From: Nemertoderma westbladi
Lineage: Eukaryota > Animalia > Xenacoelomorpha
Reading direction: 5' to 3'
Assembly: GCA_032718475.1 (NCBI GenBank)
Contig: JAUCBJ010001973.1
Location: 1 to 64,000, forward strand
Length of the DNA stretch: 64,000 bases
The notes under the pieces are model-generated. The model searched no databases. It was not told where the DNA came from and worked only from the letters and a program-made list of their open reading frames with translations. The translations under genes and the position numbers were made by a program. Shown here one piece after another: positions 1 through 64,000 of the stretch; within the stretch, counting starts at the first letter, position 1; each line of letters begins with the position of its first letter.

Positions 1-99
1 ATTGGTCTGTTCAACAGTTCTGCTGTTAGTATAGAGGTCGCGGTTGTTTATCAAAGAACTATGGCGACGAGGTGGAACGCGTCAGTAAACAACAGCATC

Positions 100-1352
100 T
101 CTGACGGGACAGTGAGCTGATTGCGCTGTCACCACAACTCAATGATGACGGGATGTTAGTAATGAACTCTAGGGTGTGTCATCCCACCAAAGCCCATCAT
201 CATCCCCAATGGATCGCCGATAGTCCACCAGATTATATGGGACTCCCACAAGTCGATATTGCACGGGGGCACCAACTGGACCCTCACGGAGATACGGAGG
301 ACCTTTTGGGTCAAACAGTTGAGGAAGAAGGTAAAGGCGGTAGTGGGGCAGTGCCAGACCTGCCGACGAACGAAGAAGGAGCGAGCTATACAGGAGATGG
401 CACCACTGCCGGCCAGTAGGGTGAGACAACATGACCCGCCATTTACGCATTGCGGTGTGGATATGTTTGGGCCAATAAAGATTAAGGTGATGCGACACAC
501 GGAGAAACGCTACGGTATTATCTTCGTGTGTAACAACACGCGGGCAGTAGGGATAGAACTCGCCCAAGATGCAACCGCATCAGCATTCATTAATGCTCTA
601 GAAAGGTTCAGAGACCGCAAAGGTGGGATGATCGCAGTAATATATCCTGACAACGGGACCAACTTTGTGGGGGCGGAGAAGAGATGGCAGAGGCATTGGA
701 TATCCTGGAAGGGGATGAAGTCAGGGCAGCCATGAGAAGGCGACAGGTAAAGTGGGAGAGGAGGACGCCATATGCTCCGCATACTCTAGGATGCGTCAAG
801 AGACTCGTGGGTAGTTCCAAGTGTCTGATGACGAAGTTGATGAACACCCATATGGTAACAGAGGACGTACTAAGGACGGTACTAGCTAAGTGTGAGGGTA
901 TCATTGATAGCAGACCGCTATATCCAGAAAATGATGACCCTGAGTCGTTAGATGTGCTGACGCCCAGTCACTTTCTAATGGAAAGGCCAGCGACCATCAA
1001 CATGCGGGGTGTAGACCCAGACAATATACACTCCGCCAGAGTTGGAAAGCTAAGGTGATAAGCGCGGAGTACCGGAGGAGGTGGGTCGAGGAAATATCTA
1101 CCCATGCTTCATAGGAGAAGCAAGTGGAGAAATACAAACAGGGAGTTAAAGGAGGGTGATCTGGTGATCGTCACGGACGATACCATCATCAACAACCAGT
1201 GGCGGTTGGCGAGAGTTATGGGCACTTACTCCGATGAGGACGGAAGAGTCCGATCGGTAGAAGTGCGGATAGGTGGCAAGATAGGGGCGAAAGATAGGAA
1301 GACCTACAGGAGGGCTATAGGGAAGTGCTGCCTGTTAGAGGGAGCACCTTAG
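100..1352 (+). pseudogene. BEL/Pao integrase (HHCC zinc finger, rve core, C-terminal DUF5641-type region), frameshifted
   Basis: HGGTNWTL...CQTC; PPFTHCGVDMFGP; DNGTNFVG; SRPLYP...LTPSHFL; RSKW...LKEGDLV...WRLARV...DGRVRSVEVR split over ORFs 259-735, 684-1058, 1104-1352. Confidence 0.93.
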
Positions 1353-1484
1353 TCGGGTAGAGTTTAGTCGTCCAAGTTTTGGACTGAGGGGGGTGGGATT
1401 GAGGGCGAGACACCCTTCCCACACATAAAAATAAAAATAAAAAAAATAATAGTACATAATAGGTACGCAGTAAAGTAGGCAGAT

Positions 1485-1992
1485 AGAAGTTAGTTAGTTA
1501 AGTTGTAAGAGGGTACGTAGTACTGTTAGTTAGTTAAGTTAGAAGTTAGTAAGAGGGTACATAGTACCGTTAGTTGGGAGAGTTAGAAGTTAGTTAGTTA
1601 AGTAGTAAGAGGGTACGTAGTACCGTTAGTTGGGAGAGTTAGAAGTTAGTAAGAGGGTACGTAGTACCGTCAGTTGGGAGAGTTAGAAGTTAGTAAGAGG
1701 GTACGTAGTACCGTTAGTAGGGAGAGTTAGAAGTTAGTAAGAGGGTACGTAGTTCCGGTTAGTAGGAGTTAGTGGGAGTTAGAGGTTAGTAATAGGGTAC
1801 GTAGTACCGGTTAGTAGGAGTTAGTGGGAGTTAGAGGTTAGTAAGAGGGTACGTAGTACCGGTTAGTAGGAGTTAGTGGGAGTTAGAGGTTAGTAAGAGG
1901 GTACGTAGTACCGATTAGTAAGAGTTAGTTAGAAGTTAGTGAAAGGGTATGTAGTACTGGTTAGTAAGAGTTAGTGGTAGAAGGGTATGTAT
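1485..1992 (+). repeat. Tandem array of ~10-11 units (44-56 bp), each with the hairpin GGTAC-GTA-GTACC in an AGTT/TTAG-rich spacer
   Basis: Unit such as agaagttagtaagagggtacgtagtaccgttagttgggagagtt is repeated head to tail. Confidence 0.95.
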
Positions 1993-2443
1993 AATATAAA
2001 TATTAGTTAGTAGTGAGTAGCGAGAGGGGGGCACGTGAGTACAGCTGGATAAATCGTGTAGGCCACGCGACGCATACTGTTGTACTGCACAAACCCACAG
2101 AGTAGGCCAGAATGTGGATTATAAGGTAGAATAATCCATTGGCAGAAGTAGTAGCACAGTAGTAGGATTAAATTAAAAATAAAATAGGGTTAGAAAATTA
2201 GACAAATGATGGCAACAGTAGGAAAATAATTCTGGAACATAATTAAAGTAACAGACAAAATTACAATTTAGGGTACAATTTGACAGTTTTAGGAATTAGG
2301 TAGCAAAATTAGGTAATAACTCAGAAATTCTGCGAGAGATAGGCCATTTTCGAACTGAATAAACCATCTTAACTTTATCACTCATCCATACCGCGCCTTG
2401 GCAAGGCACCACCTAACGGGTGAGCGATTGTGGAGAGTTCGAA

Positions 2444-5400
2444 ATGGCAGAGAAACTTGTCCGAAAGAGAAAGGCGGAGTTAGGAGGAAAGGAGATACTG
2501 GTGGATTTCACCGAGAGGCATCCGGAAGAGAAGACGAGGGGATACTACCCAGTGAAAGTGCGCAAGCGTATCGCAAGCATGCAACGCAGGCGTATCTTAT
2601 GTGATTCCCAAGAGTTATGGCCCGACCTTTACGCAAGCGACCTACTTGCGTTAAGTCGCATAGATATCGCAACAACTTGCGTTCAGTCGCATAAAACTCA
2701 CATGCGATTCACTTGCGACTTTCAAGCGTCATGGCGCATAAATATCGCAAAAATCTACTGGTTGTGAGTTTTGTGTAATATATTGAGAACTTTGTGACAG
2801 AAAATATGATACAGTAGTTGATTATTCCACTACTGTTTGATACTATGGGCTTCCGTATCATCTGCCTACTGTACTTACCTTACATTACATTACATTCTCT
2901 AGACTTAGAACATTAGACATGCTGTATGAATCAATACTAGAAATGGTTGGTTATATAGAGGGTAATACAAATAGATTAGAATAACCATGATACAATTTTA
3001 ACTATTCCCTATAATTTTCAATTCTATAAAATATATTAATATAATCTCTAAATTCGACAGCCATATTAGATAATTCGATTCATCAATTTTATATTTTAAA
3101 ACTATTTATTTCTTGATAGGCAACGTTATTTTAATTAATAATCTTTAGTGTAATTAAAAACATGCAATTCACATGGGAATTAACGCATGAGATTCTCATG
3201 GTGTAAAACATGTGTAAAATAAGCGTTAAATGAGGTGTGATTCCCATGCGATTTTAATGCACCGAATCACATGCGTAAAATTAAGTTGTGAATCGCATGC
3301 GTGGAATCGCTTCCCTATTTTACATGTGATTCACATGCAAATCACAAGAGTTTTATCGCTATTTATTGAGCTGCAATAAAAACGCATGATGCTTTAAAAT
3401 CACTTGCGATACGCATGTGCATTTTTCACTGGGTACGAGCAGTTGGAGAGGGGTCACAAAGCGCGAGCGCTGCAGGACCATTTCAGGGAGATGCACGAAC
3501 AGCGACTGGTCGGGACCTAAGGGACACCGTCGCAAGACAACGCAATCTTCGAGCATTTCCACTATGTGGTGAAAGGAGACGAGGCGAAGTTTGGGATTCC
3601 GAAGTACGCGAGAGAGCCACCGAGGAAAGATTGGAAGAGGTTCGTAGAGTCCGTCAGCAGAGGAGGATACATGATCCTAGACGATGAGGGGACCGTGGAA
3701 GACGAGGAAGGTTTGAGGAGAGGATCGGCGGGGTCGGCCAGAACCATACTCCTACATTTGGCCAAATGGGGATATTTTCCTATTCGACCTAGGGACGTAT
3801 GGGAGCAAGAACAGGTCGAAGTTGAACCGGTTGCCGAAGGCGGTGCAAACCCTAGTGAGAGAGAAGTCGACGACGAAAGTGGGATTGGCGATTCGCGACG
3901 ATGCGGAGAGAATCATCGGTCCGGACACCCCCAACCTTCTGGACATGCAGACAGTCTACATGGCTATGACAGCACCAGATGGGTTGGGACTAGTGGAGAA
4001 CGCAGACCATTGTGGAGCGGTGGTGATGGGCCAGCTATTGGGGCTCGTGTGTCACAAACCAATGGACTGGGGTAAGTTCAGAGAAGAGTACAGAGCGGAG
4101 TTAGCGAACTCGCTGAAGTGGGGAGCGAGGCCAGGGAAACAAGAGGTGTATCAATTCCGGAGTGGAGCGATAAAGGTATATCAGAAGCGATATGATATAT
4201 CCTGCAGGAGGACTGGATAATGATAGGTTTGCTAAACCTATTCATGACCGTCGTCATTGGGAAAGAACCAACAGCATTCCTGCTATCGGGATCACCCCTG
4301 AACTACAGAAGCGCCTTCAAGACGGCTTTCGAGGGTCTGGTAGACCACCCGGGGCTGAAGGGTGAGTCGGTGTACTATAACTACCGACATCTAGTAGATG
4401 GGGACGTAGATACACTGTATCAGAGATGGGAGCAGTTAGAGGCGGATAGACGAGAAGCGAAGCGATTGGAAGAAATCACTAGACAGGAGAGGAGAGAGGC
4501 AGAAGAAAGGGAGGAGGAAGCCAGGGCGCAGAGCTACGGCTTCGAGGAACAAGCGGCCTTAGACGAACTTCGTTGGACCTCGTCAGGGAGTTTGGGGGAG
4601 TCTCTAGGGCGAGAATTAGGGTGGACGGTGGGATCACCGAAACAGTCGACATCGGGATCGCAGGCGACGCCCATACCAGCGGGCGCCGAGGGCGATCACC
4701 CACTAAGGAGGCTAGGAGAGCTAGAAGGATGGAGAGCCACGGGCGAGAGCCAAGGTGGGAAGGGACACAGTGGATCCACCAGGATACCGGGGTTGGAGCC
4801 ACTCCCAGAGGAGGACGATGATGACGACGAGTTCGGAGAGATGCCGCCCATCGGGAGGATCGGCCACTCGGACATAGACTGGGTTGGCTGGAGGGTGGTG
4901 ACGGCCAGTGGGGCGAGAGCCTTCTGGGATAGACCCGGCAAGCGGGCTTGGGTGCATGAGGAGCCGGCAATGGATTTCGTGGGGAGTACCATCAGGTTGG
5001 GTGAGCAACCAGGGACGGCACCACGGGTAGTATTCGGGGAGACGATGCCTGGGAGGGGTGAGGAAATAGACGTGGACAGGGATGCTAACGTCCAAAAGTT
5101 CGCTTACCAGCGACTCCACAGACCGCGGAGATCGCTTGGGACGAAAGGCGACGTGGGGTGGGAGGCATTGGTGCTTGGCTGTGATTACTGCGGGAGGCAA
5201 ACTCACCAGGAAAGGAGCTGTTTGTACCAATTCCAGAAAGGGACTAGTTGTCTCTACTGCCGCGAGTCGAGCCACAGGATGGGGGCGTGTCCACGGTTGC
5301 ACAACCGATGTTTGAAGTGCAACTTTCGGGGGCACTATGGATGCCAGTGCGACTGGATGGACGACGAAGAGGAGTTTAGAATCTTCGAGGAGTGGGCCGA

Positions 5401-5899
5401 CGTCGGCGCCATGACACGGCAACATATGAAGGCCCAGGAGTTCCAGTGGGGTTTCTTCAATATTAACCAGGAGGCCCACCTGGAGATTATCAAACGGAGA
5501 CTTCCATCTACCTACCAGGAGGTAGCAACGGCGGTGTCGTGTGCCGGGGTGATAAATACGCAAAGGTATTTGGACAGGTGGACGCCACAGAACCGAGGGG
5601 AGTTCAGAGATTTCTTGGCGGAGCATGTGCCGCGGCCGATGAAAGTGATCTTATGGGACGCCACTAGGGGGAGACAACAGGGCCACTCGGAGGGGCCACC
5701 CACGAAGCGATACCGGGAGCTGATAACACCAGCGCCCAAGGAGTCGATGACCGGGATTAGTAGAGAGGTGACGGCAAGGGTCAGGTGTCTGAAGGGAGAT
5801 AAACTCAAGGGAGTGGCAGCGGCCAAGAAACGACCAAGGGAGGAGGACGACAGAGGGAAGGAGTTGAGATGGTTGCCAAAGTCAGGTGGAACGAACTAG
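2444..5899 (+). pseudogene. Accessory ORF of BEL/Pao element 1: DEDDy 3'-5' exonuclease + coiled coil + 3 CCHC zinc knuckles (~850 aa reconstructed)
   Basis: Removing 2548-3435 joins ...KTRGYY|EQLERG... in frame. ExoI-like GYMILDDEG (3680-3688); GDIFLFDL...LPKAVQTLVREKSTTKVGLAIRDDAERI (ExoII); LLDMQ; QKRY-ILQED (ExoIII-like after removing a duplicated GATAT). CDYCGRQTHQERSC, CLYCRESSHRMGAC and CLKCNFRGHYGCQC are all Cx2Cx4Hx4C. Confidence 0.75.
2548..3433. mobile_element. Non-autonomous DNA transposon (MITE), 886 bp, CCCAG...CTGGG termini, TA target duplication; animal CMC/EnSpm-like by termini
   Basis: Imperfect TIR cccagtgaaagtgcgcaagcgtatcgcaag / cttgcgatacgcatgtgcatttttcactggg; TA at 2546-2547 and 3434-3435; excision restores the host ORF frame. 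Confidence 0.88.
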
Positions 5900-6588
5900 A
5901 ACTTCGATGTGGCATGCCTGGAAGGCACCACATGAGACGTGCGAACTCCTAAGTACAAATTCAAATAATTTAAATAATTGAAAAGTGCAATTAGTATGTA
6001 CGTACGTAACAATCATTAGCTTAGCAAGTGAATATAAACAAAGTAGGTACTATAGCCATATAACCTTTTCCAATTAGCTACTGGGACTGGGTACCAATTG
6101 ACTATGGTACTAATCACAGACGAGACGTTGGACGACTCCACACTTCTTGAGTTTGACGGCACAGGAGGGGGGTGAGACTCGTCGGGAGTAAGTGAGCTGA
6201 GATGGGGGTTGAGTAATAGTGTGGAGAGAGTGCAGGTGCAATTCAAGTGTGGGGGGGGAGAGGCAGGAGGCAGAGTGAGGGACGAGGAGGTCCGGGAGTA
6301 TGAAGGAGTTAGAGTGAGAGTGGAGGGGATTTAGTGGTGAAGGTGTTGGGGAAACAAAAGTCGTGTGAGAGAGGCGCACGATCGGCCCGACACGGGACGC
6401 CAGGTGTCTTGGTACAAGATAGGTAGAGTTGTACCAAGACGGGGTAGCGATATCATACCCATAGGGAGCTGCCTGGAAAGCCGGCTCTGAGAAAAATAGC
6501 TCCACCCCACACCCGATGGTAGATCGGGATCCCGCGGAATTGTAGCGCACTAAAGGTGGATGTTATCTTCTCACCAGGAAGATAGCAT

Positions 6589-6597
6589 GGGGGGGAG
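6589..6597 (+). promoter_or_regulatory. Polypurine tract of BEL/Pao element 1
   Basis: GGGGGGGAG directly before TGTTAGCG. Confidence 0.8.
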
Positions 6598-7158
6598 TGT
6601 TAGCGAATTCAATTCCGCTAATCACCCCAAAAAGTTAGCTTTAAGCAATATTGGGAACACGAGGTTGATTGCCAATCAACCTCGTATCACCCCAATAAAC
6701 AGGGACGAGAAACCCCAAAGGACACACACACAATGGGGGTCAGGGGTTATACCTCTAAGAGAGAGAATAACAGTAGCGGGGGAGAAAACACTCCCAGAGA
6801 GATGGGAGGCGAGAAGTGAGTTATTAGCCAATGGGGGGCAGGCATCCGCTGAGTAATGTAATACGGCCAACCAGTGCAATATATTACCAGTTGCTGTGTC
6901 ATTTTATTCACTTTAGTTAGTCAGTTAGTTAGGGCAGAACGGGAACTCTTAACACCGTCCTCGACCACTGCCACCATCATCATTCAGTTAGTCACTATCT
7001 TACCGGTACTCATTCAATCTGTGCTTATACTTTATTACCATCATTATACATACCAAGGACAATAAGACTCTCAATCAGAACTTCTTTCACATACACACGG
7101 TGGGGACGCGTAGTCAAGATAACCGGATAAACCGGGATCCTCGGTGGATCCCGTCACA
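6598..7158 (+). repeat. 3' LTR of BEL/Pao element 1 (~561 bp)
   Basis: Starts TGTTAGCG after the PPT and ends CGTCACA; AATAAG polyA-like signal at ~7061. The 3' end is inferred because the partner LTR is not in the window. Confidence 0.7.
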
Positions 7159-7397
7159 CTCGAGATTCAGTGATTTGCCAGATAGTGGCGCACATTAACC
7201 GCAATTGAAAATGGTGATATTCAGCACGGGTCTTGCAGTCTTGTTACTTTAGGGACTGTTCTTTTCAGGGTTTAACTAAATTAATATTGTATAATCAATC
7301 ATGTACCGGTACTGAAATAGTTTACTAACATTGCCAAACTTGTCGGCATACTGTCTGACTGTCAGTTTGTGATTTTACCTGATGGTAAATTCATCCT

Positions 7398-7616
7398 TAA
7401 TTGCCTGGCTGAGTTGTGAATAAAGGAGGAGAGAGCCCTTTTGACGTCAGTTTGTAAGTATTGTGACTACAGCGTGTGACTAGCTTATTCGATTAGCTAG
7501 CGCCCGGTATTGATATTTTGTTAAAATCACCAAAATCTAGTATAACAGCAATACACCAAAATTGTTTTATCGTAACACACACACATACACATGTCTCGAG
7601 ATCTACTGATTTACAG
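7398..7616 (+). repeat. ~218-bp dispersed repeat, copy 1 (copy 2 at 33629-33846)
   Basis: Both copies read taattgc.tggctgagttgtgaa.aaaggaggagagagcccttttgacgtcagtttgtaagtattg ... gagatctactgatttacag. Confidence 0.9.
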
Positions 7617-7699
7617 TTGGGACCGAATTGTCCGGGACCGAATTGTCCAGGACCGAATTGTCCAGATCGAATTGTCCGGGACCGAATTGACCTACATCC
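7617..7699. repeat. 15-bp tandem repeat (ggaccgaattgtcc[g/a]) x5 ending in CATCC; probable subterminal end of a non-autonomous DNA transposon
   Basis: Direct reading; this produces the spurious GPNCP peptide repeat. Confidence 0.75.
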
Positions 7700-10600
7700 A
7701 AAGAGGAAGAAGAACTATACTGCCTGGACGGGAGGTTAGAGGCGCTTACAAATTTTCTCCATAGATGAGGCGTACTGATCGAAGAGCCGGAAGTTGTACC
7801 GAGAGGGACGACGGAAGTTCTAACTATGGAAGGCTCGCAAGCCTACCAAATTCCACAACTGGATAGATCGTTTGTTAGCGTATGGAGCGATGTTGGCGAC
7901 GTTAGTCGGACAGCGTCCCTAATTACTCAACAACAACAGGAGATCGCATGCCAACAACAAGTTGCTGAGGAAGAAGCGCAATGACAGTGTAAGCCGTAGT
8001 TTATTTGAAGAGAGAGACGAACCTGTGTTTCTGACAGTAAAACAGGTAAGTGAACCGGTTCCAGTTAAACCTGTGACGTGCTATGCAAACCCTATTAGTT
8101 ATAGACAAACTCCTCCTAACTCTGATGTATTTATTAGACCACTTACTCAGTGTGTATCAAGACCTACGACTTCGTGGAGGGCTTGTGAGCCTACCGAACA
8201 ACGGAGAATGGTAGACGTGGGTAGTAAGATAACCCACCAAATCGAAACAAGTTTACCGAGACCTACTACTTCGTGGAAGGCTTGCGAGCCTACCGAACAA
8301 CGGAGAGCCGTAGATCCCCGACCACAACGAACTCGGCCAACTATAGTAATACGCCGAATGCGAACCCGCCAACCACCGTATCCCAACGACAGCGATTCAT
8401 CCACCAATACGGAGTTGACGGAACGGGAAATACTCCGTACTGGAGCGGCAGGCGATTACAACCGGGTAGGAAGCGTGACGAACCTGTACATTGACATCCC
8501 TCCATGAGAAACACCCGTGCAGAAACCCATGTCGCAACCAGCAGAGACGATTTGCGCCAAACAACTCACTGAGATAATGCAACCTGTAGCGGACAGGTTG
8601 GCTCAAATCGAAGTGCGGCTCGAAGCGCTGTTGTCAGATCGATTGTGAACCAGCGTGGAGTTAGAACAACCTCAACCACAGAGACCACCCTATCGAGTGC
8701 CAGAAGCTCGGCAGACCCCAAATCCTCGAGGAGAAGATCCCATTAACTTTGTTCCGTATTGACGAACGACACGCGGACAAGAACACCTGAACGCTATTGC
8801 TGGACAAGGACACGGACAGTTTGACCTAGTTAACGAGATCGCTAAATTTGCGGCCAGACAAGGATTACCGGCACAACAACCACCAAAGTTCTCTGGCAAT
8901 GCGAAACACTGGCATACGCTGGTAGACTACGTAGAGTCCCAGATCGCTATGTTTGCCTTCACCTCGACGGAGAAGTTTAACTTCTTGCTTCAAGTGCTAT
9001 CATGTGAGCCGAAAAGATTAGCAGAGACCCTTATTGATGTTCCAGACACTTTCGAACTATAGTATGACCGTCTATTTTCCATATACGGCAGTAACATCAC
9101 CATGGCTAAATCCATTATAGAATACCTCTGTAGAGGCGGACCCATCTCAAAACCCATCGACCTTCTACGATTGGCAGATGAGATCAAAAACGCTATAGGG
9201 ACTTTGTGGTCCATCGGTCAACTCGAGTACGCCAACGCGCCGACAGTTCTAATCCGGATTATCGGCCGACTACATCATCGGTTGCGTCGAGAATGGCGCT
9301 GGATAGAGTACCAGCGCGAAGAGGCTGGCGGACTACTGAAACTAACAGATGTCTAGCAATTGATCTCACAAGAGGCAGTAGTGGAGACACGGTCTAACTA
9401 TACGGACCATCATATTGCGGCAGAAGGGATTACGGTTGCTGCGCCGAACCAGACCAAACAACCTCTGACGAATGCGAAAAGCCGTAACCTATGCTACACC
9501 AACGGATACCTCTAAGGTTCTGACACCTATTTGTACCAAACAGCCATGACAGCAGTTGTCGGCAGACGTTCTGTGAGCGGAACGGTGGACGATACAGTGG
9601 ACACAAGCTACGCAGATGTCGCACCTTTAAGTGGCGGAGAGAAGACTCCAGATCCGTCCATTGGATTCTTGCTAGAGATATACCATGCCTGGGCATGTCT
9701 GGAAGGACACTCCGATGCAACCATGACGTGTTGCTCCACACAAATAGTCATACTCTAACTAAGCAATTTCAACGCGAATATCCCCTTAAAGCGGAGAAAT
9801 GCGACGCGCTTTATAAAGAGTGCGCGCCGCGAGAAGTCCGTACCTTCTACACGGACTACATGGACCAATCAGGATCGTCGGACGAAGACGACTCAGAGGA
9901 CGAAACCTTTTATGTGCATGCGGGTGAGGACGAACAGCCATCTGTAACTCTCCTTACACAGAATCAGCTAAAGGGTTTTAGCGTGATTCCCATCAAGTTC
10001 ACTGGTACCCAAGGGAGCAAGCGCATATACGCTATATTGGACTCTGAGTCTTCGCATAGCTACGTTGACGAACAAGTAGCCGACATAGTCACTGACATGA
10101 GCCAAGGTAAGACTGCTCAGTATACTGTAAGCCGCATGCATGGTACAAGAGCGATACCCGTTATGTGGATCAAACTAACCCTGGATACTCTTCTTTCCAA
10201 AGCGGAGCATAGTAGCGAGGAACGCTCATTTCTTCCGGTGAGAAACCTTACGTTTGCTGCCACTAAGGACTTTAGCAATTTGCTTGGTCCTGTGCCAGAG
10301 CAATCTCCGGAAGACCCTAAGTATTTCCGACATCTTGGAATACCGGAATGTCGAGGTAACTATCGCTCAATCACGATGTTAATTGGGACACACCAGTTCA
10401 ACTTGCATCAAGTATGGGAGAAACGCCCATCTGTGGTAACAGCAGGCAACCCTTACGCTTGTAGAACTCCCATAGGTTTGTATACGAGAGCGCCTGTGCG
10501 TTCACTAGAGGTAAGTGACCAGAAGGACGACGTTCTAAGTACGTGTAATCTATTAACTACTATGTTAGCCAATTCTCCCTCACATTCCTGTGGTCCTACT

Positions 10601-12744
10601 GCACACGCACAGTCAGTACCACGACAGATTTACGTCGCTACAGACACCGACGTAACTGACTTGGACGAGGCCACACAGAACTCTAACTTACAGCTACTTG
10701 CAGCGAAACAGGTCGTATTGACTACCGAAGACCAAAGGGTTGATGCTGTGGATGTCTCGACTAATGAGGATATTGAAAGGCTTGCGAGCCTACCAACAGA
10801 TTCCGAGTTTATCGACCCATCTGCAATGCTTCAACACTGGTCGGGGATCTTGGAAGGCTTTCGAGCCTACCAATAGATTCAAAGGTCATCGAACTGCCTC
10901 AGGATGTTTCGAAGATGACTAGTGACACCGGAAGGCTTGTGAGCCTACCAGCTACATTGACACTAGCCACTGCGGCAGACGATAACGTAGACGAGGAGCA
11001 TGGCGCAGTGCAAGCATCGCTAGACAGACTGTTGACCGAGAGAACCATTAAGTGGTTGGAACAGGACTCAGCAGAACTAGGTAGTTACGAGAGCTATGTC
11101 AGAACAGGAAAAATGGTCATTAAAGATTATGAAGGATACCATTTGCCAGAATGCGAATGGCCACCTCGAAGTTGGGATGTTGTGGCGCCATGGACAACCT
11201 AAGCTCGTCAACAACTATCCACTTGCCTTAAAATGACTTAAGTCTATACGGCAGCGGCTGTTGCGTGATAAGACGGCCCATATGCAATACAATACGCAAC
11301 GAGTCCTGATGTGTTTCAGACAACGCAAGGTTGCCTTCACCTGTGATGTAGAGGCCATGTTCCACCAGGTTAAGGCTTTGGAGCGGGACAGGGACAGTTT
11401 GAGGTTTCTTTGGCATCTGGATGGAAATTTAAACCTTCCGCCAGAAACCTACCAAATGCAGGTAAGAGTTTTCGGGTCCAGGGACAGCCCCAACTGTACC
11501 ATGTATGCCCTAAGCAGACAGCTTTGGACGGACTTGACAAGTTAGACCCAGACGTGGTTTGGACAGTGGAGGGGGATTTCTACATGGATGACAGCCTCAA
11601 GAGCTGCGACACTCTGGAGCATGCTATAACCGTGGCCCACCAACTCCAGGACTGTCTCACCGAGGGCGGCTTTCACCTCACCAAATTAGCCTCCAATAAC
11701 TCCGACCTAGTGAATTCATTTGACCCTACTGACCGTAGCAGGGGTGATCTAGATTTGGACCTAGAAACTCTGCCTACGACCAAAGTCTTACTACTCAGTT
11801 GGGACCCGAACACCGACAACTTTAGGGTGCGCGTAAGGACCAACGACCAGACGAGACCTCTCACCAAGAGGACCTGCTTATTGACCATGAGTCATTAGTA
11901 TGACCCACTGTGCTTTATCAGTCCAGTGATCCTACATGCAAGGAACATACTCCGCAGCATTTGGCAGGCTGGACTGGAATGGTATGATCCCATCCCAGAA
12001 AAGCTGGCTGAGCAGGGGAGGGACTGGGAGGCACAACTGACACTCCTACAAGACTATACCATCCCGAGGGTATACTGGCCACTTCCTTATACTGGCGGCT
12101 TTACAGGCCACCTTTCCTGCAGATCTGGAGCTTTACAGCTTCAGTGACGCTTGCAAGGACGGGCTGGGGGTTACCTTATACTTACGTGACAAGTGACATT
12201 GGACAGTTACGAGGTATCTTTCGTTACTTCAAAAGCTAAGACAATGCCTCTGAAGTATATGACAATGCCTCGGGGAGAACTTCAAGCCGGGATGATAACC
12301 ACCATACCAACATCATCAGTCTAGTCCAGCGCAAACTGGAGGCCAACTTGAAAGTCACGTATTGGACCGACGCAATGTTAGTGCTTTGGTACATCAATAA
12401 TGAAACGTTTCAGCAAGACTTTTGTTGCCAACAGACGGGCTGTAATACTAGACAGGTCGCTCAAACAGGACTGGCATCACTGCCCAGGGAAATTTAACCT
12501 GGCTGACATGGCGTCATGGGGAATGTTACCCATAGACTTTTGTAAACTGGAACATAAGTCCTTCTGGTTTAAAGGACCCGATTTCCTACAACGACCATTA
12601 GATGAATGGCCACCACTATTCGACGCGACATCGAACACCATACTGGAAGTTGCCGAGATAAAAATCGACACTGTCATCAAGTCGAAAGCAAAAGCCAGCA
12701 CCAAGGTCAAGGGGAAACAAGGACGAGCAAAGTCTAATGACGTC

Positions 12745-13220
12745 TCATCAGACATTCTACCAGACGTTCCAACAAATATTTCGCTGGATGTTCCGCGGGG
12801 GATTTCACCAGACATTTCGCCAGATTGTTCACCAGACGTTTTGCCAGATTGTTCGACAGACTGTCCACCAGATTATTCTCCGGACTCTTCACCAGACTGT
12901 TTTCTGGATCTTTCGACCAATTGTCTACCGGACATCTCACCAGATTTTCCACTAGACATTTCGCTGGATTTATCACCAGACTTTCGACCAGACATCTCGC
13001 CAGACTGTCAACCGGATTTTCCACCTGACATCTCGCCAGTCTGTCAACTAGATTTAGACCAGTCATTCTGCCAGATGTTACACCAGACTTTCTACTGGAC
13101 GTACGAAGAACATTTCGCTGGATGTTCCATGACATGTTTCACCAGATGTCTCACCAGACTGTTCGCCAGACGTCTCACCAGACTGTCTACCAGACCATTC
13201 ACCAGACATTCTACCAGAAT
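12745..13220 (+). repeat. In-frame 12-bp tandem repeat (ccagacatttcg-like, ~40 units) encoding (P/L-D-x-S/P)n between RNase H and integrase
   Basis: Translation SPDISPDCSPDVLPDCSTDCPPDYSPDSSPDC... Confidence 0.92.
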
Positions 13221-13672
13221 GTAAAGACATGCACTACAACGCTGAATTACCCCATTGGAGCGGACTAGTATCAACCCATTAGGTATTACCAACTTACCTA
13301 CTTTGACTTCCTTGAGTCACCATGACAACGGTGTGAATACAGGTATTACAAGTATGGGTCATGCCCATCAAAACGTAAATACAGGTATCACACTACAATC
13401 AAGGAAAATACCCGACTTACAGCCGATGGCTAAATGTGTGACTAAGGTTAGGAGAACAACATCCACAAGAACACAAACAAGAAGATGTCCACAAGAACAC
13501 ACTAACCCCATAGAGTTGAAACTATTACTACAGGTCAACCCATTGAGTGAAGGCCAAGGTACTTAAGGACTCAGACAAACCCATTGCACAAAGGGAGACA
13601 CTCACTGGACCCTACCAAGTCCAAAAAAGTATCCACACCATACCTACACCTTACCTGATGATGTCACCAACA

Positions 13673-13883
13673 CTTACGTTGACCATATAGTCAACTTGAC
13701 ACGATCATGGACAGATGCTTGCTGCAAACTGGCATGGCTTAAACGAGTGAGACAATATGCCAAAGGCAAACACGGCACCAACTCTTACGTCAACCGGATA
13801 GTCAACTTGACACGATCATGGACAGACGCTTGACGCAAACTGGCATGGCTCAAATGCTTGAGACAATATGCCAAAGGCAAACA
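13673..13883 (+). repeat. 111-bp tandem duplication inside pol
   Basis: cttacgt...tagtcaacttgacacgatcatggacaga...gacaatatgccaaaggcaaaca occurs twice. Confidence 0.88.
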
Positions 13884-15029
13884 ACGACTTTCCACGAAGA
13901 CTAACCTTGGCCGAAATTGAGAACTGTGAAATTTATATTATTAGACATTATCAATTGTGATATTTCACACGAGAGTTCACAGTAATCAATAAGTCAATCA
14001 ATCAATAAGTTCACAGTCTTCACCGATACTGAGTTGGAGTCCAATAATATACAAGAGCTTACTTTGTCACAAGTCCAGACTCTAAAACATTGACTTTGCT
14101 ATTGACTTTAGGTATCCTATCATCATACCACAAAACCATGAGTTACAGCGCGCTATGATACTGGACACACATGTATAACTCAAACACATAGGTAGGCACC
14201 ACTGCCTATCACTCTTATGCTCGAGGTTTGAAATAATTAGACCTAGTAAGGCATTGAGTTCAGTAACGCACAACTGTATTATCTGTAAGAAGGTACATGC
14301 AAGGATAGGATGCCAGGAAATGAGTTAACTACCACTAGCTAGATTACAGGCGTTTAGACCCCCATTTACCGAGACTTGGATTGACTGTTTTGGACCTATA
14401 AACACAAAACTTGGATGCGTACAGGTGAAACGTTAGGGATGGATCTTTACCTGCATGGCCAGTAGAGCAGTTCATACTGAAAGCGTAACAGATCTAACCA
14501 CCAACGCATTTATTCTAGCTTTATGGCGATTTATCACTAGACGCGGATTGGTCAAATCCATACACTGTGACCAAGGGACCAACTTGTAGGTGCGAGGAAC
14601 AAAATCTCCAGAGCCTTAAAGAAGTTGGACCACAATCAAATCTCCAACGAACTATGTCCCAACAAGATCGTCTGGAACTTCAACCCTTCTGACAGTCCAT
14701 GGAGAGGCGGAGTTTGGGAGAGATTAATTGGATCCATCAAAACGGCAATGGCGAAAGTAATACCTATGCAACTACAACAAACTGACTACGTTGTTGATAG
14801 AAATCAAAGCGGTAAAGAATACCAGACCCATCGCTTTGATTCCAGATGATAAACAATCCCAGTTTGCCTTGACACCACCGCACCTGCTTATGCAGGCGGT
14901 GATGACACTGTTGCCCACTTCTGTACCCATCGACAGTGACAGTTACGGCAACAAAGCTTGGAAAATCACTCAGTTGTTAGCCAATAAGTTTTGGGAAGTA
15001 TGGCAGAAGCATTATTTGCCCTCTATTTC

Positions 15030-15707
15030 AAACTTAGTAAGTTGTGATGTGGGACCCTTGATGGTCGCCACGTAGTCCAACCATACTCCTGTACACTGTA
15101 GGTTAAAGACAATGGTGGAATTCCATTGCCTTTATATGTGAACATGGAGGGTAGTACCCTTATGTACAAATCGTTGCCCTTCAAAGTCGTAGATATATCC
15201 AATGTACCCACAATCTTCGAACTCCATAAAATTATCACCATGAATTTCCTTTTTCTTCGGTTCAATACGGGAAAGAACGACTTTGCCGTAGATGCTTTGT
15301 AAGACATCTAGAATTTTTCGCGAGATAAAAATTGATGCGCCGTTTTTCCCAATGCGTAAGTACGCATGATTTATTGGCGTTATAAGCAAATTGCCTCTGG
15401 TGTATTCCTTGTAATATTCAATGGCTATTTTCTTATAATTGAGGAAGTCAAATAGGAATCTTATGTTCTGGTAAGTAAGACTTACCGATTCTTGCACGAC
15501 GTTGCGTCCTTTGGTATCACCCCAACGGTTGAATCGAACGTATTTCCCGTTAAATGCTTTTATTTCTATTCCTTCCCCCAAACACTCGAGGCCCCACACA
15601 CTCTTACCTGTAATCACCGATACGTATGGGGCGGGCGCACTATCAGTAGAGCTACCGCTTAATGACATCATTTTTGGTTGTGATAGTTTCACAGATTCCA
15701 TCAACAA
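15030..15707 (-). pseudogene. Polinton ORF with putative tandem PC4-like (ssDNA-binding) domains; internal stop, truncated at the BEL junction
   Basis: IKAFNGKYVRFNRW...SVSLTYQNIRFL and YIYDFEGQRFVH...I*RQW...TGVWL resemble the PC4 pattern (F.G..vdIR.w....GisL); reading continues past TAA 15132. Confidence 0.4.
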
Positions 15708-15949
15708 ATTTTGCGAAATATTAATAATTAAGTGTAAAAATACAATAATATCACGCTATACAATGTGCGAAAAATATGAATAATGAATTATAACCCGAAT
15801 GATGAAATAAAGTATTTTACGACGTATTTATAATGTAATGATGGGCTATCGGGAAAACGGGTATATTTTAACCACTCAACCGGATTAATCGCTATTGTCC
15901 TGAGAGAATTTTTTTTTAAAAACTTCCTAAATTTCAAAGGAAATATTTA

Positions 15950-16100
15950 TTTATGCTTAAATTGGTTGACGTAAGTGGTAACAGCTTGCGGTGGCGATTA
16001 ATGTGACCTATATAAATTTTTATAGACACACCCCCGAATTTCCACAGAATATTACTCACGGTTAAATTGATTGACGTCAACTGTATTAACTGTGTAGCTT
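15950..16100. promoter_or_regulatory. Putative divergent Pol II promoter (CRE-like TGACGT sites, TATA box)
   Basis: attggttgacgtaag (~15961), ctatataaat (~16008), ttgacgtcaa (~16071), lying between divergent ORFs. Confidence 0.35.
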
Positions 16101-16260
16101 CTTAGAAGTTTCATAATTTTAAGCATGAGCGAATTTAATTTAATGTCGGCATTGTAAACTTTCTCTCCCGATGGATATTTTTCTGTAATCATCTACTAAA
16201 AATGAACAATTGCGGCGCGCGAACGACGTTTTAAAGACACACCCATTATAAATATACCCA

Positions 16261-16923
16261 TTGGTCAAAATATTATTGATTAAGCGACATGACAAGAGTC
16301 AATTGAAGCTTGAGTCTATAGATAAGATCATTTTTTCAAATATATTATTCATTGTTACCTTTCTTTTCGGAATTTTTTTAGGTAAAATACGCCGTAATAA
16401 AAAAATATTTCAAATAATACAAGCTGAAAATAGTTACCGCGGTCCTAATTCAATTATTCCAATTAAAATTGAATTGTTAAGCCCGGCAGCTCGGGCGCCT
16501 GTATGCGGCTCATATAGTCCCGCTGGGATTGATATATATAGCGCCGTGAATAGAACAATAGAGCCGCACTCACGAATGTTAATTGAGACGGGTGTTAAAA
16601 TATATTTACCCGTCAATTATTTTGGAAGAATTACACCGACTTTTAGCTTGACTAAAATTGGCATTGATGTTGCAGAATGTGTGGTCGATTCCAGTGTCGC
16701 GCGCGGCAATATAGATCAACTTGTAATTATATTGATTAACAACACATCTAAGGAATACGTTGTAACATCGGGCGATAAAATATGCCAGCTTATATGCCAA
16801 CAATGTAATGCGGCAATACTCTACGTTTCTAATATTTATTCGGATGATTATTTTGGGCTTTTACTGACGAATTTAACGCCGTATGGGGAAGATATTAATT
16901 CAGCATTTCACTGCACATATTAA
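16261..16923 (+). CDS. dUTPase-like protein with N-terminal hydrophobic segment; motifs II, III and V degenerate
   Basis: LLSPAARAP..GS..AGIDIYS (I), TGV.I.LP..YFGRITPTFSL (II altered), VVDSSVARG (III), GDKICQLI (IV), no RGxGGFGS motif V; IIFSNILFIVTFLFGIFLG N-terminal. Confidence 0.85.
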   Translation: MVKILLIKRHDKSQLKLESIDKIIFSNILFIVTFLFGIFLGKIRRNKKIFQIIQAENSYRGPNSIIPIKIELLSPAARAPVCGSYSPAGIDIYSAVNRTIEPHSRMLIETGVKIYLPVNYFGRITPTFSLTKIGIDVAECVVDSSVARGNIDQLVIILINNTSKEYVVTSGDKICQLICQQCNAAILYVSNIYSDDYFGLLLTNLTPYGEDINSAFHCTY

Positions 16924-17216
16924 ATATGTGACATTAAATGCATAACACCAAACTCGGGTGGTGACACATGTCAATACTATTTCAATACTCTTACACGCGA
17001 TTATACAACATAGTTAATAGAGCATATAAATAGGATAATTGTCAGTTCAGTAAATTTTGGTTGGTTAAACGGTTTCAAGCGCGGGTGGCTGACTGGGTAT
17101 TGGATATATTTATCTACATAAAATCTGCCGCATCTCTTTCATCGGCATATTGTAAATATGTTTTCTGTACCTACGTTAATAAATATATTATAATCGTAAT
17201 AATAATAATAATTATA

Positions 17217-19667
17217 ATGATGGGGATTAATTGCGTTTTTTGCGGTTGTACTATACTTAAGAAAAATTATTTACGGCATTTACGCACACATTTTGATGGG
17301 TATGTTTGCGATAATTGTAATTGCCGAACTACTTCTGAAAGAATAGCAATATTTCACAGTAATAGATGTTGCGGGTTGTCTCGCCCGAATTACACCTACC
17401 GTGGTTACGCGCTATCCTGCCTGACATGCTCTGATGATTTTGAAAACTTTGATTCATATATCGAACATAGTTGCCATCAAAACCATTACAATTCCTGCAA
17501 ACGCAAACATAACCAAAAACGATCAGAACCAACATTTCAATCGGATCTCAACGTTGGTTCGCCTGTAAGCATTACAAACAGCACAGATACACCCAACGAA
17601 GGTTTTCATCTCTCAAAAACATGTCACGAATGACGCGTTCACTCATAATGTACCATCTAATGAGATGTATCCGGATGTGCCGAATTATTTAAATTATATG
17701 GGGATATATGCTTCGCGCGCTTTTAACACGGCGCATCGGCTTTTATTGATATGTTTTATAAAGTGTGGGTGATTGCTTCGGTGATAATGGAACGTGATGA
17801 TGCTAATTATACTTTACAAGAAGAATTCCATTTTACTTCGATCGGTACAGATAATTATATTGAAAATAGCTCGGATTTTGACGAATGGTACTACACAGTC
17901 ATTTCCCATATCAGTAAAAAAATATCGCAATTTATTTGGCGGGGTAGCGGTTGGAAACTTGTAACTCTATCGTGCATCAAACTTACTATTGCGTCATACT
18001 TGCGATCGGTATATCGTTTTGAACATAGTGGTGATGCCAACCAATCAATCCCGACAAAATTAAAAAATTAACATTGTATAATAAATGTACCGTGTAATGA
18101 AGGTGAATGTTTTAAGTGGGCGGTCCTGACAGCAAAATTTTCAAAACATATATCGGATGATCACACACTGCGCCATGTTTCACGCCAAAGTTCTTATAAT
18201 CAGTATTTAGGGTTTTTTAATTTAAGCGAATTAGATTCTACCCTATCATGGAAACTAAATATTCTAAATTTTGAAAAAAAATTATCCAAATTATTTAATA
18301 AATTTATTGTATTTCGATAGAAGTAGCGAGAAAATTTCCTTTCTACGACAACCGAGCACTAAAAAAGCTGAAGGTAAAAGATTGCTAAATTTATTGCTTA
18401 TTGAACGTCAAAATTTAACCTCAACAAATCACATTATCACTTAATCACTTAAATAGATTATTTAATGGTCGCAGGGAAGGCAATAGCGACACTCATTGTC
18501 TTCGTTGTGAGTGGTGTATTTGTGGCTTCTACAGTCCAAATGCGTTAAAACGCCATAGATTGTGGTGTTGGCAAGGGAGAAATCAAATAGAGGAGATGCC
18601 ATCTAAACTGAATTTACGCTTTACTAATTACTATAAGTCTGTGAGTACGCCTTTTATAGTATATATGGATTTCGAAGTGGTACTAGCCCCAACAAATAAT
18701 GTAAAAAAGTATTATATAGCCGAACATCTCCCGTCGGCCGTTTCATATTTGATTGTCCCCAATAGCGAATTAATTAACCCACCAAATTATTTTTTATCTA
18801 CATTAAGACAAAATATCGATAATAACTCGGTATAATTATCGATAGTCTGGTTTTTGATTTATTTAAGTGTTATGAATGGTCTACCTTTAACACGCACCAC
18901 CCCAAATAACTGGATCGCACACAATACCAAGCTTATATGCGTACCACAAATTACTTTAATTGTAAATCATTTTTTCGGGAAGATATAAATCCAAGTGTAA
19001 TGCATCACAACCATTACAACCGGGCTTTCATTGGTGCGGCATGTATTTCCTGTAATAAACAATTAAGTGTTAAACGTCACCTATTCCCAGTTGTCTGTCA
19101 TAATTTTTTTTTTATGATTCACATTTAATTTTACAAAAAGGGTTTGCCTGTAGTAAATATGAAAACTGGAACATTGAAACCATTGCAAAAAATACTGAAA
19201 GATATATCTCACTTCGCATAGATATTCCAATGTCAGAAGCACTTAGCGTGCTTGGTTATGCTATTCAAGAAAAGGACGTAAGAGTGCTCCCAACCAGCAA
19301 ATCAATAACTATACAGTTTATTGATTTATTCGCGTTTATGGGATTTTCCCTTTCTGCTTTGGCTGGGTTTTTGACAAAAGATGTGTCAGATTTAACAACC
19401 GTTATTCCGCACACTGTGAAGCAAATGAGAAAATTATATCCAAATGTTACCAATGAAATTTTACGTCGTAAGTCAGTTTTTCCTTACGAATATGTCGATT
19501 CCTTAAGAAAATTGGGGGATACTAAATTACCGCATCCAAAAGAGTTTTACAGCGAATTAACATTATCATCTATTAGCCCTGAAGAATATACATTTGCTCA
19601 TCTTTCGTGGGAACAATTTGAATGTGAGACACTTTTTGATTATTTAGAAGCTTACTTACATCTTGAC
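17217..19667 (+). pseudogene. Protein-primed DNA polymerase B, N-terminal half only (C2H2 fingers, GSGW region, exonuclease motifs, EndoVII-like insert); polymerase domain missing
   Basis: CVFC...YLRHLRTH; FIWRGSGW; CFKWAVL; FTNYYK...PFIVYMDFE; HNHYNRAFIGAACISCN; VVCHN; FIDLFAFMGFSL; RKSVFPYEY; FYSEL...DYLEAYLHLD then abrupt change of sequence. Confidence 0.9.
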
Positions 19668-19754
19668 GGTTGGTTGAGACGACAAGGGGTCCGTGTGACC
19701 CCCTCCAACGCAAAATGCGTCGATGCGTGGAAACAATACGTAGGACTACAATAA
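19668..19754 (+). pseudogene. C-terminal remnant of a different Polinton ORF fused to pPolB by deletion
   Basis: GWLRRQGVRVTPSNAKCVDAWKQY does not continue pPolB and sits just upstream of integrase. Confidence 0.45.
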
Positions 19755-19872
19755 ATCGACATATGGAAACAAAACGCGGGATAACATTAAAATAGTAGTA
19801 TGTTTTTTGAATGTTTCATATTAAGTATTAACTGCCATTGCAAGTGTTTTCTACCGCGACTCGACACAACCG

Positions 19873-20964
19873 ATGGGGAGAATCGTAGAAAATCGAACAA
19901 ACAAACGACTGGGAAGAATATATTACGATGTTTCAAATGCTGCCGGTTTCGCGAGCGTAACCAAACTAGCAAAAGCCGCTAAAGTTACGAGAAATCGCGC
20001 AAAGGAGTGGTTGAGCTCCCAACGAGCGTATTCCCTACACGCGCCGGCTAGGCGCCATTACCCGACATCAAAAATTTTCACGGGCGGCATTGGACATCTA
20101 TATCAGGCGGACCTATGCGATATGCAACCCTTTAGGGTGGAGAATAATGGTTATGGTTACATAATTACTTGTATCGATTGCTTTAGTCGCAAGGCGTGGG
20201 CACCAGGGTTAAAACGTAAAACCGGTGTCGAAATTAAACGCGCCCTAACCACAATATTCAAAGAAAGAAAGCCTAAAAGACTGGCGGTTGATTAGGGTAC
20301 TGAGATTGTAAATAAATTAGTGAAAGAATTCTTACAGAATAATAATGTTAATTTTTATACATTAGTTAGCCAATTTAAAGCTAGCATCTGTGAGAGGCTT
20401 AACCGCACACTTAAGTCGAAAATGTATAAAGTGTTCACAAGGCGGCAAAATAAGAAATGGATCGACATATTACCAAAGCTGGTAATTTCATATAATAATT
20501 CAATACATAGAACCATCGGTATGGCGCCAAACTTAGTCAATAAAAATAATGAAACTGACTTATTTTTAAAACTATATGGCAGTGTGCGCCATCCCAATAA
20601 AAAGAAACGACGGGAACAGCGTCGAGTTTATTTCAAAGTTGGCGATAAAGTGCGTCTGAGATTAACCGCGACGCCATTTTCCAAAGGATATACACCTAAC
20701 TATACCTGGGAAATTTTCGAAATTTCTAGAATACAGATGGATCGAGAGCCGTACCCTATGTATGAAGTTATGGATGTGAATAGGCGTGTTATTAAAGGGA
20801 CATTTTATCAATATGAAATGAAAAAGGTGAAAGAACCGTTTGAGTTCTTACCAATTGAAAAAGTAATCAAGGAAAAAGTAATAAACAAAAAAACAGGGAA
20901 AAAACAATACCTGGTAAAATTCGTTGGTTATGCGAAGCACCGGTGGGTTGATAGGATACAATAA
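19873..20964 (+). pseudogene. Polinton retroviral-like (c-int) integrase with C-terminal chromodomain; one in-frame TAG at 20293-20295
   Basis: IYYD..NAAGF; WLSSQRAYSLHAP; YQADLCDM; CIDCFSR; VD*GTE; ERLNRTLK; YNNSIHRTIGMAP; FKVGDKVR...FSKGYTPN; IEKV...YLVKFVGY. Confidence 0.95.
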
Positions 20965-21854
20965 TGGATCGCTTACATTTGACATTGACTTCTGACGCCA
21001 GTCTAGATAAATATCCTAACAACACCCCGAGCGATTTTACAATTGAGTTGTCCAAACCTATCCCCATTACCACGGATTGGGTTGTGGGCCTAAAAGAAAT
21101 ACAATATGTATCAACTTATAGGAATATCGAGCAAAGATCCGGAATTAAAATTGGTGAATACATGGAAGATGTGGATATACCATTCCACATTGCCCCATAT
21201 AATCTTATTGAAATCGATCTTAATCATGGGCTGTATGCTTCTGTTGAGTCAATTATAAATTATATTACCGTATATTTGAAAAAAAATTCCGTAGCACATC
21301 ATGGTTTCTCCTATGTTAAGTTTAATTATCACAAGCACACATCGAAAATACATTTGCATTCTATGAAAGGACGCTATTTCCAATTCTACGGGGATTTAAT
21401 AAATATATTTGGCTTATCGTCTTTAAAAAATAACATACTTGGTCTTGGCGCGTTTTGGTCAATACATTACAACCCAGAAGACAACTTACTAAGTTTAGGC
21501 TCTAGAAATTCAGACAAAAATGGAATTGAATTTCCTGAACCCTGCGATATAACGAGGGATAGACATACAATGTTTATATATACAGATATAATTTAATCTT
21601 CCCACGTGGGGCATTCTATGGTTCCTCTTTTGCGGATAATTCCATTAAAATGGCAACCATACTCATTTATAAGTCAAGAGTTCGAAAACACTCATTACAA
21701 ACAGTTAAAAAATCAACAATAATTTGTTAATACAATTAGTATAACGCTTCGCGATCATAAAGGAAAGCATATAGTGTTTCACGGTGGTAAAACAATTTTA
21801 GTTCTAGAACTAAAAAAACAGTCGCAATTACAAAACTGGTATAATGATGAATAG
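20964..21854 (+). pseudogene. Minor capsid (penton) protein copy 1, two in-frame TAA stops (21594, 21720)
   Basis: LTLTSDAS...YPNNTPSDFTIELSKPI...WVVGLKEIQY; MFIYTDII*SSHVG...PLLRII; HYKQL...TISITLRDHKG...F..GKTILVLEL. Confidence 0.88.
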
Positions 21855-22695
21855 TTATTATGTTGTACTACCTTCAAACGCGAACCCAATAGAATTTCCA
21901 CTTAATAATGCTAGCGATTTCCAAACAAATTTACAAATTCCTTTACCTATCGCTAGAGGGCAATGGTTAGTAGGTTTGACTAGTATAACCTACGTACCTA
22001 GTATTCGTCACGATAATAGTAACATTTATATAAAGGCTATAAAAAATAAAAAAAATGGATACAAGAGATGTCACTCTCTGTCGTTCCTGACATTGGAAAG
22101 AATCATTGAGTTCTTCAACAAAAGCATTATTAAAGCACAAATTAATATAGTTGATAATAGAGCGAGGTCAGGCGATATAACTATTCATTTCAAAGGGAAA
22201 CAATGGGAAATATTCGTTAGCAAACGTTTGGGTGGTTACATAGTATTAATAGAGCACGATATTGATAAATTAGGTTTCAAGTGCGTAAAAACCGACGTCG
22301 GAGATTATAATTTAATTAGAATTAATCCGCGGAATAATAAGTACCAGTCCCATAAACATCCCGACGCAGTCGAGATACTAGACCCTAACATAAATATTCA
22401 CCTTAATTGTGTTGAATCTCAATTTGTGGACAATAACGAATATCGGCTGTTGCATACCATACCATTAGAAGGGGAATACGGTGAAGTCATTACTAGGGAA
22501 GTCAAACAGATATACTATAAAAAACTTAAAGTAACATCTAATTTACGCTATATATGGGCTAAATTGGTTGGGGATTCGGGTGATCTGTTGCGCTTTCATT
22601 ATGGAAATTCAATATTAACGCTTCATTTTATACGAATTGACTGCGATAGTCACAATTTAATCGATGTAAATTATTTATTATTTATTATTATCTGA
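21844..22695 (+). CDS. Minor capsid (penton) protein copy 2, intact
   Basis: YYVVLPSNA...FPLNNASDFQTNL..P....QWLVGLTSITY; CVESQFVD...LLHTIP; YYKKL...LVGDSG..LRF...ILTLHF. Confidence 0.88.
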   Translation: MMNSYYVVLPSNANPIEFPLNNASDFQTNLQIPLPIARGQWLVGLTSITYVPSIRHDNSNIYIKAIKNKKNGYKRCHSLSFLTLERIIEFFNKSIIKAQINIVDNRARSGDITIHFKGKQWEIFVSKRLGGYIVLIEHDIDKLGFKCVKTDVGDYNLIRINPRNNKYQSHKHPDAVEILDPNINIHLNCVESQFVDNNEYRLLHTIPLEGEYGEVITREVKQIYYKKLKVTSNLRYIWAKLVGDSGDLLRFHYGNSILTLHFIRIDCDSHNLIDVNYLLFIII

Positions 22696-22718
22696 TTATC
22701 TGAAGTAATAGCGACTAT

Positions 22719-28508: not shown

Positions 28509-28515
28509 CTTAACA

Positions 28516-63978: not shown

Positions 63979-64000
63979 CTTTTCTCCGCGCTCGGGTGTC

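Follow-up and report, generated by a model that had tools for sequence, protein, structure and literature searches.

What does a BEL/Pao-type retrotransposon encode in the env position, between its integrase and its 3' long terminal repeat (LTR)? The question is raised by a stretch of 64,000 nucleotides from Nemertoderma westbladi (positions 1 to 64,000 of contig JAUCBJ010001973.1, assembly GCA_032718475.1, forward strand; hereafter the window), in which such an element carries a third open reading frame (ORF3) at 2444-5899. An earlier note, made from the sequence alone, had read ORF3 as a captured DEDDy 3'-5' exonuclease fused to three CCHC zinc knuckles. We find that the window holds a dead copy of a gene that is under selection in its family, that the three knuckles are exact, and that an exonuclease fold of the WRN/Nibbler/EXD2 type is likely.

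A gene under selection, present here as a dead copy

The four fragments that the earlier note had joined into one frame of about 850 residues do add up, their pieces of 34, 110, 140 and 567 codons giving 851. The start codon, ATG 2444, has a strong context and is in frame with the piece that follows an inserted miniature inverted-repeat transposable element (MITE). This agrees, as do the 12-nt terminal inverted repeats of the insertion (2546-2557 and 3424-3435, TA included), with the 888-bp, TA-flanked and frame-neutral MITE described before. The in-frame TAA and the duplicated GATAT, placed earlier near 3518 and 4190, were located at 3518-3520 and 4189-4198. The parts of the element are as follows, with the basis of each in brackets; frames A and B are the reading frames before and after a +1 change, and "private" means peculiar to the window copy.

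166-1352 (+), broken BEL/Pao-type integrase in three frame pieces (Pfam matches, identity to other integrases of the window)
1353-2443 (+), purine-rich spacer with 44-56-bp tandem repeats at 1481-2023 (purine share 0.63)
2365-2405 (+), putative splice-acceptor-like signal: branch-point-like hexamer, pyrimidine tract and AG at 2404-2405 (pyrimidine content)
2444-2545 (+), N-terminal 34 codons of ORF3 (open reading frame track)
2546-3435 (no strand), TA-flanked MITE, a private insertion of 888 bp with one TA (inverted repeat; empty site seen in contigs of each run)
3436-3763 (+), frame-A piece of ORF3 with the private TAA at 3518-3520, an ExoI-like D-D-E at 3680-3688 and an LLHLA strand at 3749-3763 (synonymous bias, HHalign)
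3764-3771 (+), +1 frame change, possibly family-wide (selection changes frame between 3709 and 3773)
3768-4187 (+), frame-B piece of ORF3 with the ExoII-like KVGLAIRDD at 3876-3902 (synonymous bias; WRN-type profile, 12.8 bits)
4189-4198 (+), private 5-bp direct repeat (GATAT twice) at the last frame change (absent from 59-69% of depth)
4196-4245 (+), ExoIII-like helix, Y-x3-E and then W at +6 (rank 1 of 802 windows for the third-motif columns)
4420-4530 (+), E/R-rich charged segment, presumably a coiled coil, followed by a G/S/P-rich linker (composition)
5180-5350 (+), three Cx2Cx4Hx4C zinc knuckles at 5180, 5249 and 5309 (motif count against shuffles)
5351-5899 (+), C-terminal part of ORF3 with a basic tail and the stop at 5897-5899 (open reading frame track)
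6589-6597 (+), polypurine tract (sequence)
6598-7097 (+), probable 3' LTR starting with TGT, its end near 7097 uncertain (sequence)

Other copies were taken from contigs of three DNA runs, which represent no more than two samples and as many studies and one of which may be the source of the window. Between 1398 and 2186 contigs per run matched 891 bases of the region, most of them less than 99% alike, and the ORF3-bearing element is thus a diverse multi-copy family; summed contig depth was left aside as an estimate of copy number. Each of the three runs has contigs with the empty site of the MITE, 2545 being joined to 3434. At the position of the stop (3518-3520), 86-93% of depth has another reading, and 59-69% of depth across the runs lacks the 5-bp repeat. 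These three lesions are private to the window copy.

At a share of at least 25%, 95 places differ between the contigs and the window; 40 of them were listed and 39 classed (the stop being left out), a share under 0.95 defining an among-copy difference. Among the listed places, 11 of the 13 among-copy differences before 3714 are synonymous in frame A (expected 0.34, p 3e-4). Beyond 3773, the synonymous ones in frame B number 10 out of 16 (expected 0.35, p 0.02), and the remaining reading frames display no synonymous excess. Only 1 of the 10 differences private to the window copy is synonymous. As the among-copy differences are mostly synonymous and the lesions are private, ORF3 is a selected gene of which the window holds a dead copy, selection having been measured in the frame-A and frame-B pieces.

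The +1 frame change does not fit as easily among the signs of decay, to which the earlier note had assigned every break. The shift itself stands, but not its placement near 3755: LLHLA in frame A (to 3763) aligns with a reference LLQLA strand and IFLFD follows in frame B, so that the change lies at about 3764-3771. The only indel listed at a share of at least 25% in 3400-4290 is the one at 4189, whereas a 1-bp integrase indel at 680, taken as a control, was detected in 53-72% of depth. Since no indel is seen there in other copies, the change may be common to the family, for which we see roughly even odds; short contigs may conceal indels near their ends, and none of those listed spans 3764-3771, one gap-free contig ending at 3763 and another starting at 3768. 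A search around the change for a stimulatory RNA structure found none (z -0.04 to -0.36). An intron was rejected as its cause, only 8 nt separating the flanking strands if both are coding. A 101-codon open run that continues in frame A past the change was also set aside as unremarkable, being equalled in 453 and 1371 of 20000 shuffles, with a 112-codon run at the same offset elsewhere.

The zinc knuckles and the exonuclease-like domain

The knuckles are as perfect as had been claimed, with exact Cx2Cx4Hx4C spacing at 5180, 5249 and 5309. When the 567-residue frame was shuffled 20000 times, no shuffle contained three knuckles and three contained one. The Pfam zf-CCHC cut-off is not reached (zf-CCHC_4, E 0.03, 14.4 bits against 27), and of 14 weak PDB matches of the knuckles (E 0.07-7), 13 carry the names of nucleocapsid/Gag, LIN-28 or CCHC-domain proteins. 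The C-terminal part at 5351-5899 has no match above cut-off in Pfam or the other libraries.

The exonuclease-like domain was approached with a directed profile, chosen after the hypothesis of the earlier note and built from stand-alone PF01612 matches in 34 Bacteroidota-enriched genomes; 12 of the 14 sequences were kept, one being dropped for a wrong frame and one as an unrelated exonuclease. The top PDB matches of this 12-sequence profile are WRN (1e-30), Nibbler (3e-20) and EXD2 (2e-19). Against it, the native frame at 3717-4217 ranks first of 1079 frames of the window (12.8 bits, E 0.003; the next reaches 4.7). The read-through translation with X at the breaks scores 11.9-12.2 bits, its 3000 shuffles at most 4.9, and a profile of PolA exonucleases (29 loci) gives -0.8 to -1.0 on the same read-through. 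HHalign yields 68.5% (E 4.6e-5) over 169 colinear columns that take in the three motifs, whereas none of 60 shuffles exceeds 1.8%.

In the second motif, the ExoII Asp is found in the context G-x-x-I-x-x-D, with K147, G149 and D155 invariant together with the 12 references. The third-motif window (X at the break) ranks first of 802, its score being equalled by 47 of 5000 shuffles, or 12 of 5000 locally; an alternative register proposed by MAFFT ranks 15th of 802 and was discarded. In the QKRYILQED that had been called ExoIII-like, the residue four past the Tyr is Glu and not Asp. No variation at 4205-4213 was found among the 40 listed of the 95 differing places. ORF3 resembles the WRN/Nibbler (MUT-7)/EXD2 subgroup of PF01612 in motif order and second-motif context, and differs from it in remaining below library thresholds, in its fourth acid, in insertions between the motifs and in being borne by a retroelement.

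Several observations weigh against an exonuclease. Pfam, NCBIfam, PHROGs and the PDB sequences returned no match for single pieces or for the read-through with X at the breaks. On the latter Pfam gave no family at E<=10 and PF01612 stayed below its cut-off, so that the Pfam check on the repaired protein proposed in the earlier note came out negative. A HMMER search against 1.84 billion proteins gave a single match, P0002 at E 4e-5; it was rejected as a short-repeat artefact, the protein being a bacterial one with TPR repeats. The hmmsearch match to the directed profile spans about 28 residues around the second motif, and corrected for a library of 25,000 families it would stand at only about 0.1. 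The ExoI D-D-E is aligned by HHalign with low confidence, ranks 41st of 808 windows, and has its Glu set elsewhere by MAFFT; the Y-x3-D of ExoIII is absent, Tyr and then Glu being the best register, with Glu as the fourth acid. Moreover, the first and second motifs are encoded in two separate frames, and the other copies show no indel at the change, so the whole domain may form rarely or never.

Searches for relatives were equally blank: word-index searches of proteins found no homologue, and none was found in metagenome or viral contigs, nor by tblastn in plasmids or phages, a phage match at E 7 being disregarded. An unguided AlphaFold model (predicted local distance difference test, pLDDT, 34) has no fold match; an alignment-guided one (pLDDT 51) matches EXD2 and the trypanosome RNase D TbRND at E 0.003-0.004, a circular result. 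The DEDDy reading of the earlier note is thus carried by the directed profile, HHalign and the order of the motifs, while all blind libraries are blank, and the same division holds for a DnaQ-type fold in the reconstructed segment, the lack of which was to have told against that reading. On balance, the profile comparisons make a WRN/Nibbler/EXD2-type fold in ORF3 likely, with fairly good confidence, and catalysis by it would have about an even chance.

The element and its surroundings

The broken integrase at 166-1352 (+) matches Integrase_H2C2 (E 1.3e-11) and DUF5641 (E 2.2e-18) in Pfam, with a match to rve below cut-off (E 9e-4). Two further elements in the window have integrases 33-37% identical to it, the value of 33% being that for a neighbour with a DUF1759 gag. 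DUF5641 and DUF1759 are domains that we take to be BEL/Pao markers, and by integrase type the element is classed as a BEL/Pao-type LTR retrotransposon. Its 5' half lies upstream of base 1 and its 5' LTR outside the window. ORF3 lies in the env position and sense to pol as described before, with the integrase upstream and, downstream, a polypurine tract (6589-6597) that abuts the TGT at 6598; such a tract, about 10 nt long and placed ahead of the 3' LTR, is a feature of the Belpaoviridae (PMC8742986). No second copy of the 6598 LTR occurs within the window, and its end near 7097 is uncertain because contigs extend to 7131.

Upstream of ORF3, the pyrimidine share, scanned along the element in 5472 segments of 35 nt (mean 0.38, sd 0.09), peaks at 0.71 in 2365-2399. 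The acceptor-like AG at 2404-2405 precedes ATG 2444, the first ATG downstream, by about 40 nt, an arrangement that would fit an env-style spliced subgenomic RNA for ORF3. Contig cover at 2137-2403 is about tenfold below that of either gene, and the spacer upstream of this signal may therefore vary among copies. No Rfam family and no tRNA was found in 1-9000.

The window has the look of animal DNA with many mobile elements. A second, decayed BEL/Pao-type element (7769-15100, +) follows right after the LTR; its integrase is 37% identical to the first, it contains a 12-bp tandem repeat (12751-13219) and, having no evident 5' LTR, might share the one at 6598. A third BEL/Pao-type element lies at 56093-63999 (-), next to a 1.25-kb tandem duplication (53555-56035). 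Past its integrase and the duplication, a frame of 243 residues (52156-52887, -) may be an accessory open reading frame; it has no Pfam match at E<=0.01 and no match to the WRN-type profile.

A stretch at about 15100-30300, which we read as Polinton/Maverick-like, encodes a dUTPase (E 2e-16) and an rve domain (E 5e-5). Within it, a frame of 202 residues (22704-23312, +) weakly matches Maelstrom (E 0.008; 16.3 bits, where the cut-off is 22), possibly a DEDD-derived domain related to Piwi-interacting RNAs (piRNAs) in a second mobile element of the window. Elements resembling long interspersed nuclear elements, with ORF1, endonuclease-like and reverse transcriptase frames, were identified at 23578-27778 (-), where RVT_1 matches at 23581-25326 (E 4e-36) and the Polinton-like stretch is interrupted, and at 40728-44441 (+). 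Finally, a 222-bp repeat with 91% identity (7395-7616 and 33626-33846) and a long inverted repeat (48625-49528, arms 97% complementary) represent small mobile elements.

Known systems and the possible role of ORF3

The rotifer lineages Juno, Vesta, TelKA and Mag are Gypsy-type. DEDDy ORF3s occur in the bdelloid rotifer LTR elements Juno and Vesta and in Terminons, in a DEED variant for which PMC5408684 reports no demonstrated activity (see also PMC6431247); the precedent cited in the earlier note is thereby confirmed. Like the rotifer ORF3s, the present one is an extra frame after pol in the env place, with a probable RNase D-like DEDDy domain and one Asp replaced by Glu, but it belongs to a BEL/Pao element and not to Juno, Vesta, TelKA or Mag (PMC5408684). 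By their description, the rotifer proteins have no coiled-coil domains, and some have a Cys-His-Cys motif or a GDSL fusion, unlike the three knuckles found here.

The closest parallel in architecture is TbRND (PDB 7C42/7C45), where a DEDD exonuclease domain is followed by tandem CCHC fingers, four in number, that bind RNA and on which full cleavage depends (PMC7797062). TbRND is, however, a cellular guide-RNA trimmer with the four canonical acids, and its fingers follow a linker of 28 residues (PMC7797062), whereas the three of ORF3 lie about 300 residues downstream; the two architectures are probably convergent. Dada elements also carry a DEDDy exonuclease, although within the transposase of a DNA transposon and with the four residues canonical (PMC3706591). 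Some Belpaoviridae have a third open reading frame between integrase and polypurine tract as here, but the family profile names only env-like ones of unknown function (PMC8742986), whereas ORF3 has no clear membrane segment: the search for a transmembrane anchor gave a top 19-residue hydropathy of 1.46, which is that of the third-motif helix.

No exonuclease frame of a BEL/Pao element was found in the literature searched, one older nematode Cer paper possibly describing one, and no Cer1 with a DEDDy domain, as cited in the earlier note, was found there. Malik, Henikoff and Eickbush are said to have described in 2000 an exonuclease-like domain in nematode Cer elements, and priority for a BEL/Pao exonuclease frame is uncertain for this reason. 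A genome-wide BEL/Pao survey contains the word "exonuclease" 0 times (PMC3118150), passages of PMC11662393 and PMC5603734 add nothing on this point, and an uncharacterised Caenorhabditis cluster of PF01612 proteins appears in PMC3985635. DEDDy ORF3s in rotifer retroelements and the DEDD-CCHC fusion of trypanosomes are thus known, and the BEL/Pao case is apparently new, with its priority uncertain.

The explanation that we favour, tentatively and at somewhat less than an even chance, is that ORF3 is a BEL/Pao accessory gene whose exonuclease and three knuckles would bind single-stranded RNA, trim its 3' end and blunt silencing through small RNAs or 3' tails. It would be expressed from a spliced subgenomic RNA via the acceptor at 2404-2405, and the knuckles would hold single-stranded RNA and deliver it to the catalytic centre, in the manner of trypanosome RNase D. 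The domain would shorten the RNA 3' end by means of a D-E-D-E site that remains functional; were its substrate small RNAs or the tailed RNA of the element, host silencing would be blunted. To the points already raised against an exonuclease must be added that this choice of substrate is purely conjectural, and that for the rotifer ORF3s the authors saw no clear link to copy number and no demonstrated catalysis (PMC5408684). A bolder version, in which env was replaced by a spliced, knuckle-guided 3' exoribonuclease against silencing that is rationed by a family-wide +1 frameshift between catalytic motifs 1 and 2, is hardly probable.

The fold may instead serve without catalysis, in an RNA-binding adaptor (compare inactive EXD1, Maelstrom and Egalitarian-type proteins) that would package the RNA of the element, transport it or protect it, the knuckles being a second nucleocapsid-like module. 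We regard this as rather unlikely. It would explain the Glu as fourth acid, the atypical first motif, the presence of both a charged segment and knuckles, and the retroviral nucleocapsids that head their weak PDB matches, and inactive DEDD derivatives that retain RNA binding are noted in PMC5408684; however, all four positions are acidic, and rotifer ORF3s with the Asp-to-Glu swap were judged possibly active (PMC5408684). An active nuclease confined to the replication cycle, which would work within the particle on primers, on the ends of RNA or on the 3' ends of cDNA and have no role against silencing, appears unlikely. The DNA exonuclease WRN is among the closest profile matches, Dada DEDDy domains are thought to process exposed 3' ends (PMC3706591), and such processing was the first role proposed for rotifer ORF3s (PMC5408684), but the two further BEL/Pao-type elements of the window have no profile match, and a separate, probably spliced frame would better suit a trans-acting factor than a particle enzyme.

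That the exonuclease motifs arose by chance, ORF3 with its knuckles being an orphan RNA-binding accessory protein, is improbable. The blank blind searches, the unguided AlphaFold model and the choice of the profile after the hypothesis would fit with it, yet two motifs that do not overlap each score on their own and stand in the right order, as controlled with shuffles and decoys. Very remote, finally, is the case in which ORF3 is part of another element, inserted into the BEL/Pao copy or lying next to it, the 6598 LTR being that of a neighbour starting near 7800, which the earlier note had already foreseen for the LTR. The 5' LTR lies outside the window, contigs of several copies pass from the LTR into 7098-7131, and contig cover is low at 2137-2403. 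Against this, a purine share of 0.60-0.64 runs through the long segments from the integrase to the 3' untranslated region (0.49 in the MITE, 0.52 in the neighbouring element), single contigs bridge the spacer and ORF3 (2252 to 4444) and ORF3 and the 3' untranslated region (4497 to 5908), and the polypurine tract directly adjoins the TGT.

To our knowledge, transposon counter-defences against the piRNA and small interfering RNA pathways have rarely been identified in animals, and an accessory nuclease as favoured above may represent one. The known retroelement DEDDy frames come from rotifer families of low copy number, with evidence neither of selection nor of activity, whereas ORF3 belongs to a multi-copy family with a clear synonymous bias and would extend the DEDDy pattern to the BEL/Pao lineage. 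Its parallel with a solved enzyme, TbRND, leads to testable predictions of substrate, and a +1 change common to the family, if true, would be an unusual recoding site within an enzyme domain.

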